A stretch of 64,000 bases of DNA from Escherichia phage vB_EcoM_JE01, in the sequence record PQ471460.1; one strand, given 5' to 3'. Position numbers and translations under genes: made by a program. The notes under the pieces were generated by a model. That model ran no database searches. It was not told where the DNA came from and was given only the letters and a program-made list of their open reading frames with translations. Positions 33,008-42,019 of this stretch are shown here, in pieces. Position 1 is the first letter of the stretch, and each line of letters begins with the position of its first letter.

Positions 33008-33011
33008 GTTG

Positions 33012-33039
33012 AGGACTCCTTCGGGAGTCCTTTTTTATT
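33012..33039 (+). terminator. rho-independent terminator
   Basis: GGACTCC-TTCG-GGAGTCC followed by TTTTTTATTTT. Confidence 0.8.
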
Positions 33040-33117: not shown

Positions 33118-33450
33118 ATGAAAACGATTAATCTGAACGCTGCGGTTAAAACTAAATGCTTCAATGGTAAATATGATGAAACTATGTGGTTCTTAATGGC
33201 AGTTGAAGGTGATATTATTGAAGTAGAAACAACAGAAGGTATGGGAACAGATTTCACCTTTACAATTCAAGTTCATAATTTCTTTACTGGTTGGATTTAT
33301 GAATTGAATACAGTAATCGTTGGAAAAATTGAACAAAATGAATTAGGTGAATGGTATTATGTTACAGCTCGCCAACGTGCAGAACGCTTAATTGAGAAGA
33401 TGAAAAAAGTTGGCAAACTTGACATGCAGCACTGGAAAGTAGTAAAATAA
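33118..33450 (+). CDS. hypothetical protein
   Basis: 110 aa ORF with own promoter and SD. Confidence 0.5.
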   Translation: MKTINLNAAVKTKCFNGKYDETMWFLMAVEGDIIEVETTEGMGTDFTFTIQVHNFFTGWIYELNTVIVGKIEQNELGEWYYVTARQRAERLIEKMKKVGKLDMQHWKVVK

Positions 33451-34211: not shown

Positions 34212-34408
34212 TGAAATTCTTTTTAGGTCAAACTGTTGAATTAAAGGGAGTCGGTATACCTGGATTAATTTCTAAGGTTTTGCCTGCATTTAAATGGAGA
34301 GACGTTCAAATAAAAGAAGCTTATATTGTTTCCTGGGTAGATGGAAATGAAGACCTTCGTATGGGTGATGAATTATCTCCTATTTACGGATTAAAGGAAT
34401 TAGTATGA
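34211..34408 (+). CDS. hypothetical protein
   Basis: 65 aa ORF. Confidence 0.4.
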   Translation: MKFFLGQTVELKGVGIPGLISKVLPAFKWRDVQIKEAYIVSWVDGNEDLRMGDELSPIYGLKELV

Positions 34409-34611
34409 ATATAATTAATAAGATTTTTGGAATTCAGTACATTAAGGTCACATATAAAGTAACGTATAAAGGTCCGTATACCGATGAATATGAAGAGCCA
34501 CAAGTTCAGTCTATTATATTAGAAAAGGACCCTAACTGGCCAGTTGAATTTCGTCTTCCTTGCTATGGTCATTGGGCTGATGTTGAAATTATAAGTATTG
34601 AAAATGTCTGA
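34405..34611 (+). CDS. hypothetical protein
   Basis: 68 aa ORF. Confidence 0.4.
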   Translation: MNIINKIFGIQYIKVTYKVTYKGPYTDEYEEPQVQSIILEKDPNWPVEFRLPCYGHWADVEIISIENV

Positions 34612-35062
34612 GCTAGAGATAAGAAGCAATTTTAGATGGCCATCATGTGCATTAAGCAATTTCGCCCAATGGCCTTTCGTTATGGATGGTATCCAATTTG
34701 GAGGTCTAGAAGGATTCCTCCAAGGATGTAAGGTGAAAAATGTTGAACAGCAAAGACGTATATTTGGGTTATCCGGGCTTGCCGCCCAACAAGCTGGAAG
34801 GTCTTATGCTAGAGCTCAGGACCGTGGCACGTTGTTCTGGCTTGGAACTCCGTTTTCAAGATATTCCGAAGCATGGAAAGAATTATACACAAATGCATAT
34901 TTTGAAGCAGCGATCCAAAACAGGGGTTTTCGTGATGCATTACAAGCCTCGAAAGGAAAAGTTTTGAAGCACAGCATGGCTAGTGGTCTAACAAAAGATG
35001 ATACAATACTAACCGAAGCTGAATTTATTGATGTGTTAAACCTATTAAGAGACTCTCTATGA
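34598..35062 (+). CDS. NADAR (YbiA/DUF1768)-like protein, putative ADP-ribose/NAD-derivative hydrolase
   Basis: motif …CALSNFAQWPFVMDGIQFGGLEGFLQGCK… resembles the LSNF…PF…DG…F…E…Q..K NADAR core; assignment from motif memory only. Confidence 0.5.
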   Translation: MKMSELEIRSNFRWPSCALSNFAQWPFVMDGIQFGGLEGFLQGCKVKNVEQQRRIFGLSGLAAQQAGRSYARAQDRGTLFWLGTPFSRYSEAWKELYTNAYFEAAIQNRGFRDALQASKGKVLKHSMASGLTKDDTILTEAEFIDVLNLLRDSL

Positions 35063-35898
35063 AGCCAACTATTTTGACTGATATTGATGGAGTATGTTTA
35101 AGCTGGCAATCAGGCCTTCCTTATTTTGCTCAGAAATATAATCTTCCATTAGAACATATTTTAAAAATGATCCAAGATGAGAAATTTATTTCTCCAGGTA
35201 AGCTCTTTAATTGTGATGAAGAACTTGGCGTCAAGTTAATTGAAAAATACAATCGTTCAGATTTTATTCGTTACTTGTCTCCGTATAAAGATGCCCTGTG
35301 TGTAATTAACAAATTAAAAGAAGATTATAATTTTGTAGCTGTTACAGCATTGGGTGATTCTATTGACGCTCTGTTGAATCGTCAATTTAATTTGAACGCT
35401 CTTTTTCCTGGTGCCTTCTCAGAAGTAATGATGTGTGGTCATGATTCTTCAAAAGAAGAGCTGTTCAAAAAGGCAAAAGAGAAATATAACGTAATTTGTT
35501 ATATTGACGATCTCGCCCATCACTGCGATCATGCGAGTGAAATATTAAATGTTCCAGTTTATTGGATGGCTCGAGGAGAGCGTGACAATATTCCAAAAAC
35601 TGCGCAGCGAGTTTATACATGGAATGATGTAGAAAATAAGCTTTTTTCGCCGAAGGAAAATAAAGAAAGTTTTGATAGTGAAAAAGCTATAAAAGATTTA
35701 ATTGAGAAGATGGTTAAAAACGATTCTTTTCCTTGGAACACTACCTGGAGAACGCCTGGATTTAATCCTTATAATCATCTATATCATCCATATCAGACAC
35801 ATCCGTTTCAGACATGGAACTATATTAAACCTGGTGGCATAGAGTATTTGTATAATAGACCTACTAGTGGTGATAATATTTTTCAAGGAGCATTCTAA
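35059..35898 (+). CDS. HAD-superfamily hydrolase, putative (deoxy)nucleotidase
   Basis: N-terminal LTDIDGV (HAD motif I DxDG), later VTALGDS and YIDDLAHH; aromatic-rich C-terminal extension. Confidence 0.55.
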   Translation: MKPTILTDIDGVCLSWQSGLPYFAQKYNLPLEHILKMIQDEKFISPGKLFNCDEELGVKLIEKYNRSDFIRYLSPYKDALCVINKLKEDYNFVAVTALGDSIDALLNRQFNLNALFPGAFSEVMMCGHDSSKEELFKKAKEKYNVICYIDDLAHHCDHASEILNVPVYWMARGERDNIPKTAQRVYTWNDVENKLFSPKENKESFDSEKAIKDLIEKMVKNDSFPWNTTWRTPGFNPYNHLYHPYQTHPFQTWNYIKPGGIEYLYNRPTSGDNIFQGAF

Positions 35899-36167
35899 TG
35901 TTTGTTGTTCATACTATTTATGAAAATGAAGGTAATACTACACGTGATTACGGTCACGTAAATCAATTTTTTAGATGCAATCCAGAATTCCGTGCTCAAA
36001 AAGACGAACGAATTTTTAAAAAATGTGTAGAACAAGGTTTCATTTACGTCAAGCATTGGATGCAAGGAAATAAAGTTAGAACTACATATCATAAGTCTTT
36101 GCCTGAGCTTAATGATGAATTGATTTATAATAGAGATGTAAATCAAACTCTGAAGGATGAACAATGA
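35898..36167 (+). CDS. hypothetical protein (30.1-like position)
   Basis: 89 aa ORF, ATG overlaps previous stop. Confidence 0.45.
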   Translation: MFVVHTIYENEGNTTRDYGHVNQFFRCNPEFRAQKDERIFKKCVEQGFIYVKHWMQGNKVRTTYHKSLPELNDELIYNRDVNQTLKDEQ

Positions 36168-37627
36168 TTCTTAAAATTCTGAATGAAATAGCATCTATTG
36201 GATCAACTAAACAGAAGCAAGCAATTCTTGAAAAGAATAAAGATAATGAATTGCTTAAACGAGTATATCGTCTGACTTATTCTCGTGGGTTACAGTATTA
36301 TATCAAGAAATGGCCTAAACCTGGTATTGCTACCCAGAGTTTTGGAATGCTGACTATTACCGATATGCTTGACTTCATTGAATTCACATTAGCTACTCGG
36401 AAATTGACTGGAAACGCGGCAATTGAGGAATTAACTGGATATATCACCGATGGTAAAAAGGATGATGTTGAAGTTTTGCGTCGAGTTATGATGCGAGACC
36501 TTGAATGCGGTGCTTCAGTATCTATTGCAAACAAAGTTTGGCCAGGTTTAATTCCTGAACAACCTCAAATGCTGGCAAGTTCTTATGATGAAAAAGGCAT
36601 TAGTAAGAATATCAAGTTTCCAGCTTTTGCGCAGTTAAAAGCAGATGGAGCTCGGTGTTTTGCTGAAGTCAGAGGTGATGAATTAGATGATGTTCGTCTT
36701 TTATCACGAGCTGGCAATGAATACCTAGGATTAGATCTTCTTAAGGAAGAGTTAATCAAAATGACTGCTGAAGCCCGCCAGATTCATCCAGAAGGCGTGT
36801 TAATCGATGGCGAATTGGTATACCATGAGCAAGTTAAAAAGGAACCAGAAGGCCTAGATTTTCTTTTTGATGCTTATCCTGAAATTAGTAAAGCTAAAGA
36901 ATTCGCCAAAGTAGCGGAATCTCGTACTGCTTCTAATGGAATCGCCAATAAATCCTTAAAAGGAACCATTTCCGAAAAAGAAGCCAAATGCATGAAGTTT
37001 CAGGTCTGGGATTATGTCCCGTTGGTAGAAATATACGGTCTTCAGGCGTTTCGTTTAAAATATGATGTACGTTTTTCTAAACTAGAACAAATGACATCAG
37101 GATATGATAAAGTAATTTTAATTGAAAACCAGGTAGTAAATAACCTAGATGAAGCTAAGGTAATTTATAAAAAATATATTGACCAAGGTCTTGAAGGTAT
37201 TATTCTCAAAAATACCGATGGATTGTGGGAAAATGCTCGTTCAAAAAATCTCTATAAATTTAAAGAAGTAATTGATGTTGATTTAAAAATTGTAGGAATT
37301 TATCCTCACCGTAAAGACCCTACTAAAGCGGGTGGATTTATTCTTGAATCAGAGTGTGGAAAAATTAAAGTAAATGCAGGTTCAGGCTTAAAAGATAAAG
37401 CCGGTGTAAAATCGCATGAACTTGACCGTACTCGCATTATGGAAAACCAAAATTATTATATTGGAAAAATTCTAGAGTGCGAATGCAACGGTTGGTTAAA
37501 ATCTGATGGCCGCACTGATTACGTTAAATTATTTCTTCCGATTGCGATTCGTTTACGTGAAGATAAAACTAAAGCTAATACATTCGAGGATGTATTTGGT
37601 GATTTTCATGAGGTAACTGGTCTATGA
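36164..37627 (+). CDS. 30: ATP-dependent DNA ligase
   Basis: MILKILNEIASIGSTKQKQAILEKNKDNELLKRVYRLTYSRG… matches T4 ligase (487 aa); KADG adenylation motif. Confidence 0.96.
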   Translation: MILKILNEIASIGSTKQKQAILEKNKDNELLKRVYRLTYSRGLQYYIKKWPKPGIATQSFGMLTITDMLDFIEFTLATRKLTGNAAIEELTGYITDGKKDDVEVLRRVMMRDLECGASVSIANKVWPGLIPEQPQMLASSYDEKGISKNIKFPAFAQLKADGARCFAEVRGDELDDVRLLSRAGNEYLGLDLLKEELIKMTAEARQIHPEGVLIDGELVYHEQVKKEPEGLDFLFDAYPEISKAKEFAKVAESRTASNGIANKSLKGTISEKEAKCMKFQVWDYVPLVEIYGLQAFRLKYDVRFSKLEQMTSGYDKVILIENQVVNNLDEAKVIYKKYIDQGLEGIILKNTDGLWENARSKNLYKFKEVIDVDLKIVGIYPHRKDPTKAGGFILESECGKIKVNAGSGLKDKAGVKSHELDRTRIMENQNYYIGKILECECNGWLKSDGRTDYVKLFLPIAIRLREDKTKANTFEDVFGDFHEVTGL

Positions 37628-37812
37628 AAGCTTACTTAGAAACAATTGTCGTGGCTCAAAAAGAAGGTGGAGATGTTTCTACTTCTGTATCACAAATCGT
37701 TCTCGAATTTGTAGATGCATATGCTTATAATAAATTTACAGAAACATTTGATGCCTATGAAAAAGGGCCAAAGTTTGAAATATATCGTACTCTCTTACCA
37801 TTAGATTATTAA
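37624..37812 (+). CDS. hypothetical protein
   Basis: 62 aa ORF overlapping ligase stop. Confidence 0.4.
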   Translation: MKAYLETIVVAQKEGGDVSTSVSQIVLEFVDAYAYNKFTETFDAYEKGPKFEIYRTLLPLDY

Positions 37813-37834
37813 AGGCCTTCGGGCCTTTAATTTT
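37811..37834 (+). terminator. rho-independent terminator
   Basis: AAAGGCC-TTCG-GGCCTTT followed by AATTTT. Confidence 0.65.
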
Positions 37835-37842
37835 ATAAATAG
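37835..37842 (+). promoter_or_regulatory. late promoter TATAAATA upstream of first Alt-like gene
   Basis: exact TATAAATA about 20 nt upstream of ATG 37862. Confidence 0.55.
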
Positions 37843-37861: not shown

Positions 37862-39958
37862 ATGATGGAACTTATTACAGAATTATTTGACGAAGATACT
37901 ACTCTTCCGATTACAAACTTAAATCCAAAGAAGAAAATACCGCAAATTTTTTCAGTTCATGTTGATGACGCAATTGAACAACCAGGCTTTCGTTTATGTA
38001 CCTATACATCTGGAGGTGATACTAATCGCGATTTAAAAATGGGCGATAAAATGATGCATATTGTTCCTTTTACATTAACTGCTAAAGGTTCAATTGCTAA
38101 ATTAAAAGGTCTCGGTCCAAGCCCAATTAATTACATCAATTCAGTTTTTACTGTTGCAATGCAGACGATGCGTCAGTATAAAATTGATGCCTGTATGCTC
38201 CGTATTCTTAAGTCTAAAACTGCTGGTCAAGCTCGACAAATTCAAGTTATTGCTGATAGACTTATCCGTAGTCGTTCAGGTGGCAGATACGTCCTTCTTA
38301 AGGAACTCTGGGATTATGATAAAAAGTATGCATATATTCTTATACATCGCAAAAATGTATCACTAGAAGACATTCCAGGAGTTCCTGAAATTAGTACCGA
38401 GCTCTTTACTAAAGTTGAATCGAAAGTCGGCGATGTTTATATCAATAAAGATACTGGAGCTCAAGTAACTAAAAATGAGGCAATTGCTGCTTCTATTGCA
38501 CAAGAAAATGATAAACGTTCTGACCAAGCTGTAATCGTTAAAGTTAAAATTTCCCGTAGAGCAATTGCACAAAGTCAGTCATTGGAATCTTCTAGATTTG
38601 AAAGTGAATTATTCCAGAAATATGAATCTACCGCAGCTAATTTCAATAAACCTGCTACAGCTCCTTTAATTCCCGAAGCAGAAGAAATGAAGCTTGGAAT
38701 TAATTCATTAGCTTCTAAAACTAAGGCAGCAAAAATTATTGCCGAAGGAACCGCAGATGAACTTCACTATGACTATAAATTCTTTTCAAAAAGTGAGGTT
38801 AATGAAGTTTCTGAAAAAATTAAAGATGTAATTCTCAATGCGATTAAAAATGAACCAACCACTTCAATAAAATGTTTAGAGAAATACGCAGCAGCTGTTA
38901 ATCAATTCTTTGAAGAATATAAAGATAATTGGCTTGATAAACATAATAAAACCCGTAAAGGACAGCCAGATGAAGTCTGGGAAGAAATAACTAAAAATTC
39001 CTGGAACGCAGCAAAAACTAAATTCCTCAAACGAATGATTTATAGCTTTTCTGGAATTGGTGCAGGTCCAATGATTGATATTACTATTGCCCGTGATGGT
39101 TCTAAATATACTCCATCGCAAAAGCGCGGCATTAGAGAGTATTGTGGATCAGGATATACTGACATCAATAATCTTCTTTTAGGCCGCTACAATCCAGAAC
39201 GATATGATGTAATGAGTGAAAAAGAAATTGAATCTGCGATAAATAATTTAGATTCAGCTTTTGAAAATGGTGACCGTATACCAGAAGGCATTACAGTTTA
39301 TCGTGCTCAAAGTATGACTGCTCCTATATACGAAGCGCTAGTTAAAAATAAAGTGTTCTATTTCAGAAATTTTGTATCTACTTCTTTAACTCCTATCATT
39401 TTTGGACGTTTTGGAATTACACATGCTGGCATCGGTCTTTTAGAACCAGAAGCTCGTAATGAATTAACAGTTGATAAAAATGAAGAAGGAATAACTATTA
39501 ATCCAAACGAAATAAGAGCGTATAAAGAAAATCCTGAATACGTTAAAGTTCAAATAGGATGGGCAATTGATGGAGCTCATAAAGTTAATGTTGTATATCC
39601 AGGAAGTCTCGGAATAGCAACAGAAGCTGAAGTTATTCTACCACGCGGATTGATGGTCAAAGTTAATAAAATAACTGATGCTTCTAATAATGACGGAACA
39701 ACATCTAATAATACAAAACTCATTCAAGCTGAAGTTATGACTACGGAAGAACTCACTGAATCGGTAATCTATGATGGAGACCATTTAATGGAAACTGGTG
39801 AAGTAGTTGCAATGACAGATGATATTGAAATAGAAGACAGAGTTGACTTTGCATCATTTGTTTCATCAAATGTTAAACAGAAAGCAGAATCATCTCTTGG
39901 AATTATTGCGTCTTGCATAGATATTACAAACATGCCTTACAAGTTCGTTCAAGGATAA
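37862..39958 (+). CDS. Alt-family ADP-ribosyltransferase paralog 1 (head-packaged)
   Basis: 698 aa; N-terminus MELITELFD…; C-terminal R…STS…E(AEVILPRG) ART signature. Confidence 0.8.
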   Translation: MMELITELFDEDTTLPITNLNPKKKIPQIFSVHVDDAIEQPGFRLCTYTSGGDTNRDLKMGDKMMHIVPFTLTAKGSIAKLKGLGPSPINYINSVFTVAMQTMRQYKIDACMLRILKSKTAGQARQIQVIADRLIRSRSGGRYVLLKELWDYDKKYAYILIHRKNVSLEDIPGVPEISTELFTKVESKVGDVYINKDTGAQVTKNEAIAASIAQENDKRSDQAVIVKVKISRRAIAQSQSLESSRFESELFQKYESTAANFNKPATAPLIPEAEEMKLGINSLASKTKAAKIIAEGTADELHYDYKFFSKSEVNEVSEKIKDVILNAIKNEPTTSIKCLEKYAAAVNQFFEEYKDNWLDKHNKTRKGQPDEVWEEITKNSWNAAKTKFLKRMIYSFSGIGAGPMIDITIARDGSKYTPSQKRGIREYCGSGYTDINNLLLGRYNPERYDVMSEKEIESAINNLDSAFENGDRIPEGITVYRAQSMTAPIYEALVKNKVFYFRNFVSTSLTPIIFGRFGITHAGIGLLEPEARNELTVDKNEEGITINPNEIRAYKENPEYVKVQIGWAIDGAHKVNVVYPGSLGIATEAEVILPRGLMVKVNKITDASNNDGTTSNNTKLIQAEVMTTEELTESVIYDGDHLMETGEVVAMTDDIEIEDRVDFASFVSSNVKQKAESSLGIIASCIDITNMPYKFVQG

Positions 39959-39961
39959 ATC

Positions 39962-42019
39962 ATGGAACTTATTACAGAATTATTTGACGGCGCTTCGGCG
40001 CCGGTTGTTAACTTAAATCCTAAGCATAAAATACCTCAAATTTTTGCTATTCAAGCAGGTGAAGAAAGCGTGCTTCCTGGATTTAGATTTTGTACATACA
40101 CCTCTGGCGGTGATACAAACAAAAACGTTAAGCCAGGCGATAAAATGATGCATATCGTAATGATAGGTGTTAATGAGAAACTATCATTAGTTAAACTTAA
40201 AAACTTGGGTGGAAATCCAATTGGTGTTATTAATGCAGTTTTTGATACTGCTCTTCAAACAATGAAACAGTATAAAATTGACGCATGCCTATTCCGCGTA
40301 CTAAAGAGTAAAACAAACGGTGCAGCTCGTCAAATGCAAGTTATTGCCGACCGTTTAGTACGTACTAAAGGAGCAGGTCGATATGTTCTTTTAAAGGAAA
40401 TCTGGGACTATGATAAGAAATATGCATATATTATGGTTTATCGTAAAAATGCCAATTTAGAAGACATTCCAGGTGTACCTCCTATTTCAACTGAGTTATT
40501 CACAAAGGTTGAATCAAAGGTTGGTGATGTTTATGTAGATGTTAAAACAGGTAATGCTGTTCCTAAAGCTGTTGCTGTTGCTGCTTCTATTGCTTTAGAA
40601 AATGATAAGCGCACGGATCAAGCTGTAATTCAAAAAACTAAAATTAGTCGTCGATTAGCAGCACAAGCTCAATATTCTACTGTCGATGCTTCACTTCAGG
40701 GTGATAGCTTCGCTGCTAAGAAATACCAAGAGTTTGAATCTAAAGTTCCGGTATATAAAGCAGAAGGACCAATGAACTCCGGCGTTATTCAGGTTGGTTC
40801 AAACTTCAGCAAAGGAGCTATCGGTGGTATGAGAAGTGCTTCTCGTTTTAAATCTAATGATTATGAACTAGAAAGCTTCCGAAATCATATTGCATTGGCT
40901 CATGCACGTTTACGTGATCCATCTATCAAGTTACAGAGCGATATAACATATCAAGGTTCTCAAGAATATTTAAAGAATAAAGAATTTTTTGATTATAAAA
41001 CTGATAAAATTTTAAGCGATCTTGCTGACATTAATATTTCTAATAGCTTTGATGTTATTAAGAAAATCGTCAATGATTTAGTTAAAGGTTCTAAAGCCAC
41101 GCCAGATGAAAAGGTAGCTATTGTTCAATTTGTCATGAATGGCGTGTATAAATTGATTAATGAGTCTGCTTCTCAAGCGTATGAATATGCAAGTACTGAA
41201 GTACCCCCAAAAGGATTAACTCAGGCTGAGTCTGATGTAATTGAAGATTATTGTGCAGATTCATATGTTGAAATGAACTCGTTCCTTTTAGGTAAACCGG
41301 ATTCTACCCGTGAAGAATATATGGAACGAGCTATTAAACACATCGAGACAATGGATTCTGCCTTTGCCAAAGGATCAGTTCTTCCTCCAGGAACTACACT
41401 TTACCGTGGGCAAGAAGTTACTTTTAAAACTTTACGTCATAATATTGAAAATAAAATGTTCTATTTCAAGAACTTCGTATCCACATCGCTTAAACCAAAT
41501 ATCTTCGGTGAGTATGGTAAAAACTATATGGCTCTAGATGATTCCAGTACAGTATTTTCTGGTGAAGGAGAAGGTTCAGTTGATGCTGAAGATTTAATGC
41601 ATATGGGTAGTCACTCTGCTTATGCGAATGAAGATGCTGAAACTAGCGTAGGTATGGTAATTAAAGGGGCTGAGCGAATTAAAGTTATCGTTCCAGGTCA
41701 TTTATCAGGATTTCCATCAGAAGCTGAAGTTATTTTACCACGTGGAATTTTGCTGAAGATTAATAAAGTGAGTACGTACATGATGAAAGAAACTGCTTAT
41801 AACAAGTATCTAATCGAAGGCACAATCGTTCCTCCTTCTGAACAATTAGAAGAATCGGTATATGATGGCGACCACCTGATGGAAACTGGTGAAGTTCGTC
41901 CAATGACTGGGTTTAATCAATTCCTTGTAGAAGAATCAAAAGAAGAGGAAAACGAAGTTTCTCAAATCTTGGCTTCTTTGATTAACATCAACGGAATGTC
42001 TAAAAAGTTCAAAATGTAG
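39962..42019 (+). CDS. alt: Alt-family ADP-ribosyltransferase paralog 2
   Basis: 685 aa; N-terminus MELITELFDGASAPVVNLNPKHKIPQIF…; R-S-E motif region (LYRGQ…FVSTSL…SEAEVILPRG). Confidence 0.8.
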   Translation: MELITELFDGASAPVVNLNPKHKIPQIFAIQAGEESVLPGFRFCTYTSGGDTNKNVKPGDKMMHIVMIGVNEKLSLVKLKNLGGNPIGVINAVFDTALQTMKQYKIDACLFRVLKSKTNGAARQMQVIADRLVRTKGAGRYVLLKEIWDYDKKYAYIMVYRKNANLEDIPGVPPISTELFTKVESKVGDVYVDVKTGNAVPKAVAVAASIALENDKRTDQAVIQKTKISRRLAAQAQYSTVDASLQGDSFAAKKYQEFESKVPVYKAEGPMNSGVIQVGSNFSKGAIGGMRSASRFKSNDYELESFRNHIALAHARLRDPSIKLQSDITYQGSQEYLKNKEFFDYKTDKILSDLADINISNSFDVIKKIVNDLVKGSKATPDEKVAIVQFVMNGVYKLINESASQAYEYASTEVPPKGLTQAESDVIEDYCADSYVEMNSFLLGKPDSTREEYMERAIKHIETMDSAFAKGSVLPPGTTLYRGQEVTFKTLRHNIENKMFYFKNFVSTSLKPNIFGEYGKNYMALDDSSTVFSGEGEGSVDAEDLMHMGSHSAYANEDAETSVGMVIKGAERIKVIVPGHLSGFPSEAEVILPRGILLKINKVSTYMMKETAYNKYLIEGTIVPPSEQLEESVYDGDHLMETGEVRPMTGFNQFLVEESKEEENEVSQILASLININGMSKKFKM

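Follow-up and report, generated by a model that had tools for sequence, protein, structure and literature searches.

An AdfN orthologue and a neighbouring HAD-type phosphatase encoded upstream of the DNA ligase gene in a T4-like coliphage

NADAR enzymes and the DarTG1 resistance of T-even phages

The resistance of T-even phages to the DarTG1 defense was mapped by Johannesman et al. (Nat Commun 2025, PMC11825919) to gene 30.3, which they renamed adfN and the product of which has a NADAR fold in its predicted model. In that work, adfN restored plaquing of RB69 on DarTG1 hosts, purified T4 AdfN stripped ADP-ribose from DarT1-modified DNA, and the protein was impaired by E36A, by K43A, and by a C-terminal truncation like that of RB69. 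T4 AdfN does not neutralize DarT1 in uninfected cells, where it cannot replace DarG1, and it rescues T5 and Bas25 only slightly; the authors suggest that it may depend on a further T-even protein. According to a study in Toxins (2024, PMC11125620), the T4 phage NADAR hydrolyzes guanosine-ADPr and not thymidine-ADPr, and the last strand of phage NADARs has a histidine at the position of the Glu or Asp of other NADARs. The construct is described there as ‘E. coli T4 phage NADAR (gp30.3; residues 1-208)’, as against 152 aa in the T4 reference genome, and could be a homologue from another phage, a tagged construct, or a typo.

Transposon insertion sequencing (Tn-seq) of T4 further showed that DarTG1 selects specifically against insertions in 30.3 (log2FC = −7.25, adjusted P about 0; bioRxiv 10.1101/2025.11.20.689424). 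T4 also carries AdfM (Tk.4), an anti-DarTG2 macrodomain that is, like AdfN, an orphan antitoxin-like ADP-ribosylglycohydrolase (bioRxiv 10.1101/2025.11.20.689424); its fold is unrelated to that of AdfN, and its proposed target is the thymidine ADP-ribosylation made by DarT2. No copy of AdfM was found near the adfN locus described here.

That locus lies in a 64,000-nt window (the whole stretch of DNA that was analyzed) from Escherichia phage vB_EcoM_JE01, and all features discussed below are on the + strand. The segment 34000-37700 is 97 to 99% identical to the corresponding DNA of many T4-type phages of Escherichia, Shigella, and Yersinia, and by its sequence the phage is a Tequatrovirus, a T4-like coliphage. 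The gene order 31, rIII, 30.9...30.1, 30 (ligase), alt.1, alt is as in T4, with the orientation reversed with respect to the T4 map. A first-pass annotation, made from the DNA sequence alone, had pointed to two ORFs at 34598-35062 and 35059-35898, and we find both of them, together with the motifs that it quoted. Our preferred explanation, to which we give a probability of about 0.88, is that AdfN is an anti-DarT1 orthologue, that 30.2 encodes a separate HAD phosphatase, and that their gene order is inherited and does not amount to a module.

The adfN orthologue and its junction with gene 30.4

The adfN gene (T4 gene 30.3; 34604..35062) encodes a 152-aa protein that, by orthology to T4, is a probable NADAR-fold DNA ADP-ribosylglycohydrolase. 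It is identical to T4 gp30.3 at 148 of 152 positions (97%), with the same length and the same position between 30.4 and 30.2, and the four substitutions (V82T, P89E, K107R, and I125M) fall at none of the known functional residues. Public records already contain identical proteins, among them that of Escherichia phage GEP001.

Its sole Pfam match is PF08010 (Phage_30_3; E = 4.5e-69), which scores 231 bits, where the cut-off is 36, and spans the entire profile (positions 1-138 of 138). A match to the Pfam DUF1768/NADAR profile, proposed earlier as a check on the NADAR/YbiA core read from this ORF, did not materialize, with no PF08719 match at E ≤ 1 in the Pfam search (gathering score, 35.1 bits). 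A single-sequence search of PDB sequences likewise gave no match, and NCBIfam and PADLOC scans of the 30.3, 30.2, and 30.1 proteins returned nothing useful. Distant AdfN homologues give co-linear, sub-threshold PF08719 matches of 14 to 19 bits, and the family profile, when compared with PDB sequences, has YbiA as its best, weak match (E = 0.056), with the E..Q..K segment aligned. Comparison of the AdfN model with known structures returned three solved NADARs as the only significant neighbors, and it is this comparison that settles the NADAR assignment. The relation of AdfN to PF08719 is one of remote homology, backed by structure and literature, and the fold proposed in the first-pass annotation is borne out, along with the catalytic residues E36 and K43.

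The catalytic segment E36...K43 (EGFLQGCK; 34709..34732, with E36 at 34709-34711 and K43 at 34730-34732) aligns with SEHYFQAQK of YbiA, and E36, Q40, K43, and H123 are all present and invariant among the AdfN homologues aligned. H123 (34970..34972) is located in the last beta-strand, residues 120-123 of the model. The C-terminal helix (residues 138-152, 35015..35059; helix 138-151 in the model) is intact here, unlike in the truncated RB69 allele, and the alignment with T4 runs over the full length of the protein. AdfN therefore has the same E36, K43, H123, and intact C-terminal helix as its T4 counterpart, from which it differs at four residues. With the NADARs of Geobacter lovleyi (DarG1-type, 8bat) and Phytophthora (8bau) and with E. 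coli YbiA (2b3w) it shares 14 to 21% identity, and its last-strand histidine stands in place of the Asp or Glu of these three proteins. In a further difference, its gene is an orphan that has no DarT linked to it.

In the mechanism that we propose, host DarT1 would ADP-ribosylate guanine bases in replicating phage DNA, and AdfN, a small stand-alone NADAR-fold protein expressed from the 30.x-ligase gene string, would cleave the ADP-ribose off the base, upon which replication would continue and the DarTG1 defense would fail. E36 and K43 would hold the ADP-ribose, H123 would replace the Glu/Asp of other NADARs, and the C-terminal helix would be needed for full activity. This scheme has been shown for T4 only, and from the 97% identity and the intact key residues we infer it for this copy, including the removal of the DarT1 mark and the DarTG1 resistance. 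For the anti-DarTG counter-defense function that the first-pass annotation put forward, there is experimental proof in the T4 orthologue, which is 97% identical (PMC11825919, PMC11125620, bioRxiv 10.1101/2025.11.20.689424). AdfN might alternatively act mainly on soluble immune signals derived from ADP-ribose or on intermediates of the riboflavin pathway, like YbiA, with its DNA role being secondary. We find this quite improbable, as the removal of ADP-ribose from DNA is direct in vitro, the specific DarTG1 phenotype comes from two independent studies, and another AdfN phenotype has not been reported. The biology of AdfN as an anti-DarT1 enzyme was already published for T4 in 2024-2025, and the present copy adds nothing new to it.

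With respect to the start of the gene, the 154-aa ORF described in the first-pass annotation is real, but its TTG start at 34598 adds two codons that are probably unused. Translation most likely begins with the ATG at 34604, for a product of 152 aa, since this is the length annotated in T4, the numbering of E36 and K43 fits the ATG start alone, and close homologues begin with MSELEIRS. Gene 30.4 (68 aa; 34405..34611) overlaps the adfN start with its last 8 nt, and the adfN stop in turn overlaps the 30.2 start by 4 nt (ATGA); both overlaps are the same in T4. Inspection of the upstream DNA revealed no obvious Shine-Dalgarno sequence ahead of the adfN ATG. Under DarTG1, 30.4 is the sole significant gene besides 30.3 in the T4 Tn-seq data (log2FC = −1.79, adjusted P = 0.014; bioRxiv 10.1101/2025.11.20.689424), and since adfN starts inside the 3' end of 30.4, a polar or coupling effect is the simplest account of this depletion. 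Judging from the overlap, 30.4 is probably translationally coupled to adfN, and gp30.4 may have its own role in the DarTG1 response.

The internal ORF 30.3' (75 aa) annotated in T4 is also open here (34740-34967), in the +1 frame inside adfN. Relative to T4, 14 of its 75 residues are changed (81% identity), compared with 4 of 152 in the overlapping AdfN frame, which indicates that most nucleotide changes leave the AdfN protein as it is and alter 30.3'. In Karamvirus and KVP40 the frame is closed, and in Acinetobacter phage DLP2 it is open (77 aa). By these comparisons, 30.3' looks like a non-coding overlap and not a real gene.

Gene 30.2 and its HAD-type product

Gene 30.2 (35059..35898) is a 279-aa ORF that we assign to the HAD-type phosphatases from its motifs and its fold model. 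The protein is 97% identical to T4 gp30.2 and falls into PHROGs family phrog_420, which is listed as being of unknown function; the name ‘gp30.2’ is absent from the literature searched, and a broader search gave irrelevant results only. All four HAD motifs are found in the catalytic domain (residues 1-195; 35059..35643): motif I as DIDGV at residues 8-12 (D8/D10/V12; 35080-35094), motif II at T96 (35344-35346), motif III at K132 (35452-35454), and motif IV at D150-D151 (35506-35511). Across 48 homologues, no variation is seen at D8, D10, K132, D150, or D151, and conservation of T96 is at least 90%; D8, D10, and K132 are still invariant in 104 remote relatives. In an AF2 model, confident over residues 1-190, the motifs lie where strands 4-7, 91-96, 120-125, and 145-150 end, and a helical insertion after motif I (residues 16-65) corresponds to a C1-type cap. 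In a Foldseek comparison with the PDB, only HAD enzymes were returned (E about 3e-8, probability 1.00), and the best target coverage among them was that of deoxyribonucleotidases (3bwv, TM 0.71; 4yih, 0.68; 2i7d, 0.66). The motifs and the fold agree with the first-pass annotation, which had called a HAD-superfamily hydrolase from DIDGV, and membership of gp30.2 in this superfamily is secure.

The HMM match of gp30.2 itself to HAD families that had been anticipated is missing, as neither Pfam nor NCBIfam gave any match at E ≤ 1 (nor did PADLOC give any), and it is the remote relatives that match. Among the 104 remote relatives, the Pfam matches comprise NT5C (PF06941) in 41 (best E = 4.2e-10), Hydrolase in 21, and HAD_2 in 20. 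An exhaustive profile search with the family yielded 1,366 cluster representatives, and most of the 150 listed are stand-alone proteins of 190 to 230 aa without the tail described below. The top match of the family profile among PDB sequences is the mouse cytosolic 5'(3')-deoxyribonucleotidase 2jao (E = 0.063), in an alignment that includes DxDGV and an aromatic residue 8 positions past the nucleophile. The closest described enzymes are the 5'(3')-deoxyribonucleotidases of the NT5C family (mouse/human cdN/mdN 2jao, 2i7d, and 4yih; Staphylococcus epidermidis 3bwv), and an NT5C-like nucleotidase activity is the best, as yet unproven, lead that sequence and model provide. As a HAD-superfamily phosphatase, gp30.2 would follow the standard Mg2+-dependent mechanism with an Asp nucleophile, in which D8 would act as the nucleophile and D10 as the acid/base, T96 and K132 would bind the phosphate, and D150/D151 would bind Mg2+. 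The helical cap indicates a small-molecule substrate, which would most likely be a (deoxy)nucleoside monophosphate.

It is rather doubtful that gp30.2 is a DNA-end phosphatase, comparable to the 3'-phosphatase of polynucleotide kinase and serving the ligase by preparing nicks, instead of a small-molecule nucleotidase. Its helical cap after motif I (helices 16-65) is as in HADs with small substrates, capped enzymes are numerous among the better matches, and NT5C is the prevailing Pfam match of the relatives (41 versus 1). T4 already encodes PseT and, moreover, 30.2 is fully dispensable in T4 Tn-seq, whereas the ligase is essential.

The catalytic domain is followed by a C-terminal extension (residues 196-279 plus the stop; 35644..35898) consisting of one helix followed by an aromatic- and proline-rich tail. 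The unusual aromatic richness remarked on in the first-pass annotation is real, with F/W/Y/H making up 30% of the last 57 residues versus 14% of the catalytic domain. The tail is predicted to be disordered, with pLDDT values below 50 over residues 229-231, 242-261, and 267-279, and most relatives lack it or have another one in its place. It contains GGIEYLYNRPT, and a G(I/V)EYL..(Q/R)PT motif is found in 15 of 100 homologues, the catalytic domains of these 15 being 45 to 98% identical to that of gp30.2 here; other lineages have unrelated tail endings (L(R/K)AYY, LLGM..LPIITG, and LNKV.ANDS). The motif could be a lineage-specific docking motif. The C-terminus ..NIFQGAF was considered as a clamp-binding motif and dropped, because homologues differ at their extreme C-terminus.

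In T4 Tn-seq, 30.2 is non-essential, with 72 of 72 TA sites hit, and it shows neither an effect of DarTG1 (log2FC = −0.12, P = 0.61, 71 sites) nor a conditional phenotype in M9 versus LB (−0.10; bioRxiv 10.1101/2025.11.20.689424), so that the conditions LB, M9, and DarTG1 are all without a 30.2 phenotype. Gene 30.2 is dispensable, and a part in DarTG1 counter-defense is ruled out by these published data. This bears on the idea that gp30.2 is the Tevenvirus partner that AdfN needs for full in vivo activity, for which one could cite the failure of T4 AdfN in uninfected cells, its slight rescue of T5 and Bas25, the suggestion of an extra T-even protein, and the overlap of the 30.2 start with the adfN stop. 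Such a partnership is hardly credible given that T4 30.2 transposon mutants are without a DarTG1 defect and that adfN and 30.2 are unlinked in Karamvirus and KVP40, and we rejected it on the Tn-seq data and the lack of conserved linkage. As a tentative and rather unlikely suggestion, gp30.2, a divergent NT5C-like HAD phosphatase whose gene has stayed beside that of the ligase throughout Straboviridae, could be a counter-defense or nucleotide-pool enzyme. It might dephosphorylate an immune signal of nucleotide origin or a (d)NMP that is unwanted, and the tail might dock the enzyme onto a partner from phage or host.

Gene order and transcription units around the ligase gene

Gene 30.2 is followed by gene 30.1 (DUF3045, 89 aa; 35898..36167; PF11243, E = 4.7e-62), which overlaps both 30.2 and the ligase gene, and by gene 30, encoding the ATP-dependent DNA ligase (36164..37627; PF01068, E = 3.2e-32, in agreement with the T4 annotation). 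Successive overlaps of 1 to 8 nt run through 30.4, 30.3, 30.2, 30.1, 30, and alt.1, and this arrangement suggests that these genes form a translationally coupled string. Two Alt-type ADP-ribosyltransferases come next, copy 1 at 37862..39958 (PF03496, E = 1.8e-37) and its paralogue, copy 2, at 39962..42019. The ligase and the Alt paralogs are located downstream, as the first-pass annotation had stated. Both Alt paralogues are full length and in tandem, with 41% identity to each other and 42% identity of the second to T4 Alt; T4 keeps only fragments of such a duplication, alt.-1 and alt.-2, according to a note in its annotation.

Between alt.1 and alt (37808..37841), there is a hairpin with a GC-rich stem of 10 bp (37808-37831; −13.9 kcal/mol, z = −3.3), followed by TATAAATA at 37834-37841, which we take to be the T4 late-promoter consensus. 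The terminator scan did not report a hairpin after alt.1, probably because the stem extension uses up the T-run, and the hairpin was folded separately. Together, hairpin and consensus match suggest that alt is a late transcription unit apart from 30.x/30/alt.1. Elsewhere in the region, the best sigma-70-like promoter match is found just upstream of 30.7 (33419-33448; TTGACA, 18-nt spacer, TAAAAT, 11/12), and downstream of 30.9 there is a hairpin with a T-run that resembles a terminator (33011-33032). As consensus matches alone, this promoter and the hairpins after 30.9 and alt.1 would bracket an early unit 30.7...30...alt.1.

The first-pass annotation had read the NADAR, HAD, ligase, and Alt genes as one cluster that writes (Alt) and erases (NADAR) ADP-ribose marks and processes nucleotide products (HAD). 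These genes do lie within 8 kb, an association of T4-like NADARs with ARTs was already noted by Iyer et al. (2022), and Acinetobacter phage DLP2, which belongs to a different subfamily, likewise has the order YbiA-like, HAD-like, ligase, ADP-ribosylase. Several observations nevertheless make such a cluster very unlikely. DarTG1 Tn-seq in T4 depletes 30.3 and the upstream 30.4 only, with alt (log2FC = −0.01), alt.1 (0.02), and 30.1 (−0.01) all neutral (bioRxiv 10.1101/2025.11.20.689424), as is 30.2. In Karamvirus Pet-CM3-4, adfN is embedded in the tRNA cluster, with about 59 kb between it and 30.2, ligase, and Alt, and in KVP40 it is found beside genes 47 and 46. The hairpin and the late-promoter consensus part alt from the 30.x unit. 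The substrates also differ, as the NADARs tested have guanine-ADP-ribose in DNA as their target (PMC11125620) and the T4 record describes Alt as an RNA polymerase (protein) ADP-ribosyltransferase. A co-regulated module of Alt, NADAR, HAD, and ligase was rejected on the hairpin and late-promoter consensus and on the Tn-seq data. Adjacency of HAD and ligase was seen in 4 of 4 genera checked, where the Tulanevirus ligase is unannotated and was called from its size and position. The recurrence of the order in DLP2 makes an ancestral gene order probable, and the adjacency of adfN, 30.2, ligase, and alt is probably an ancestral T4-type gene order and not a functional module.

Both adfN and 30.2 are real, conserved genes, found in about 1,500 phage records each (about 1,450 for 30.2). 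Gene 30.2 is widespread and dispensable in the laboratory. For its neighbor adfN, the step from a NADAR core to an anti-DarT function, taken from sequence only, proved correct: AdfN is an orphan antitoxin-like enzyme that erases the DNA ADP-ribose mark of a bacterial toxin-antitoxin defense.
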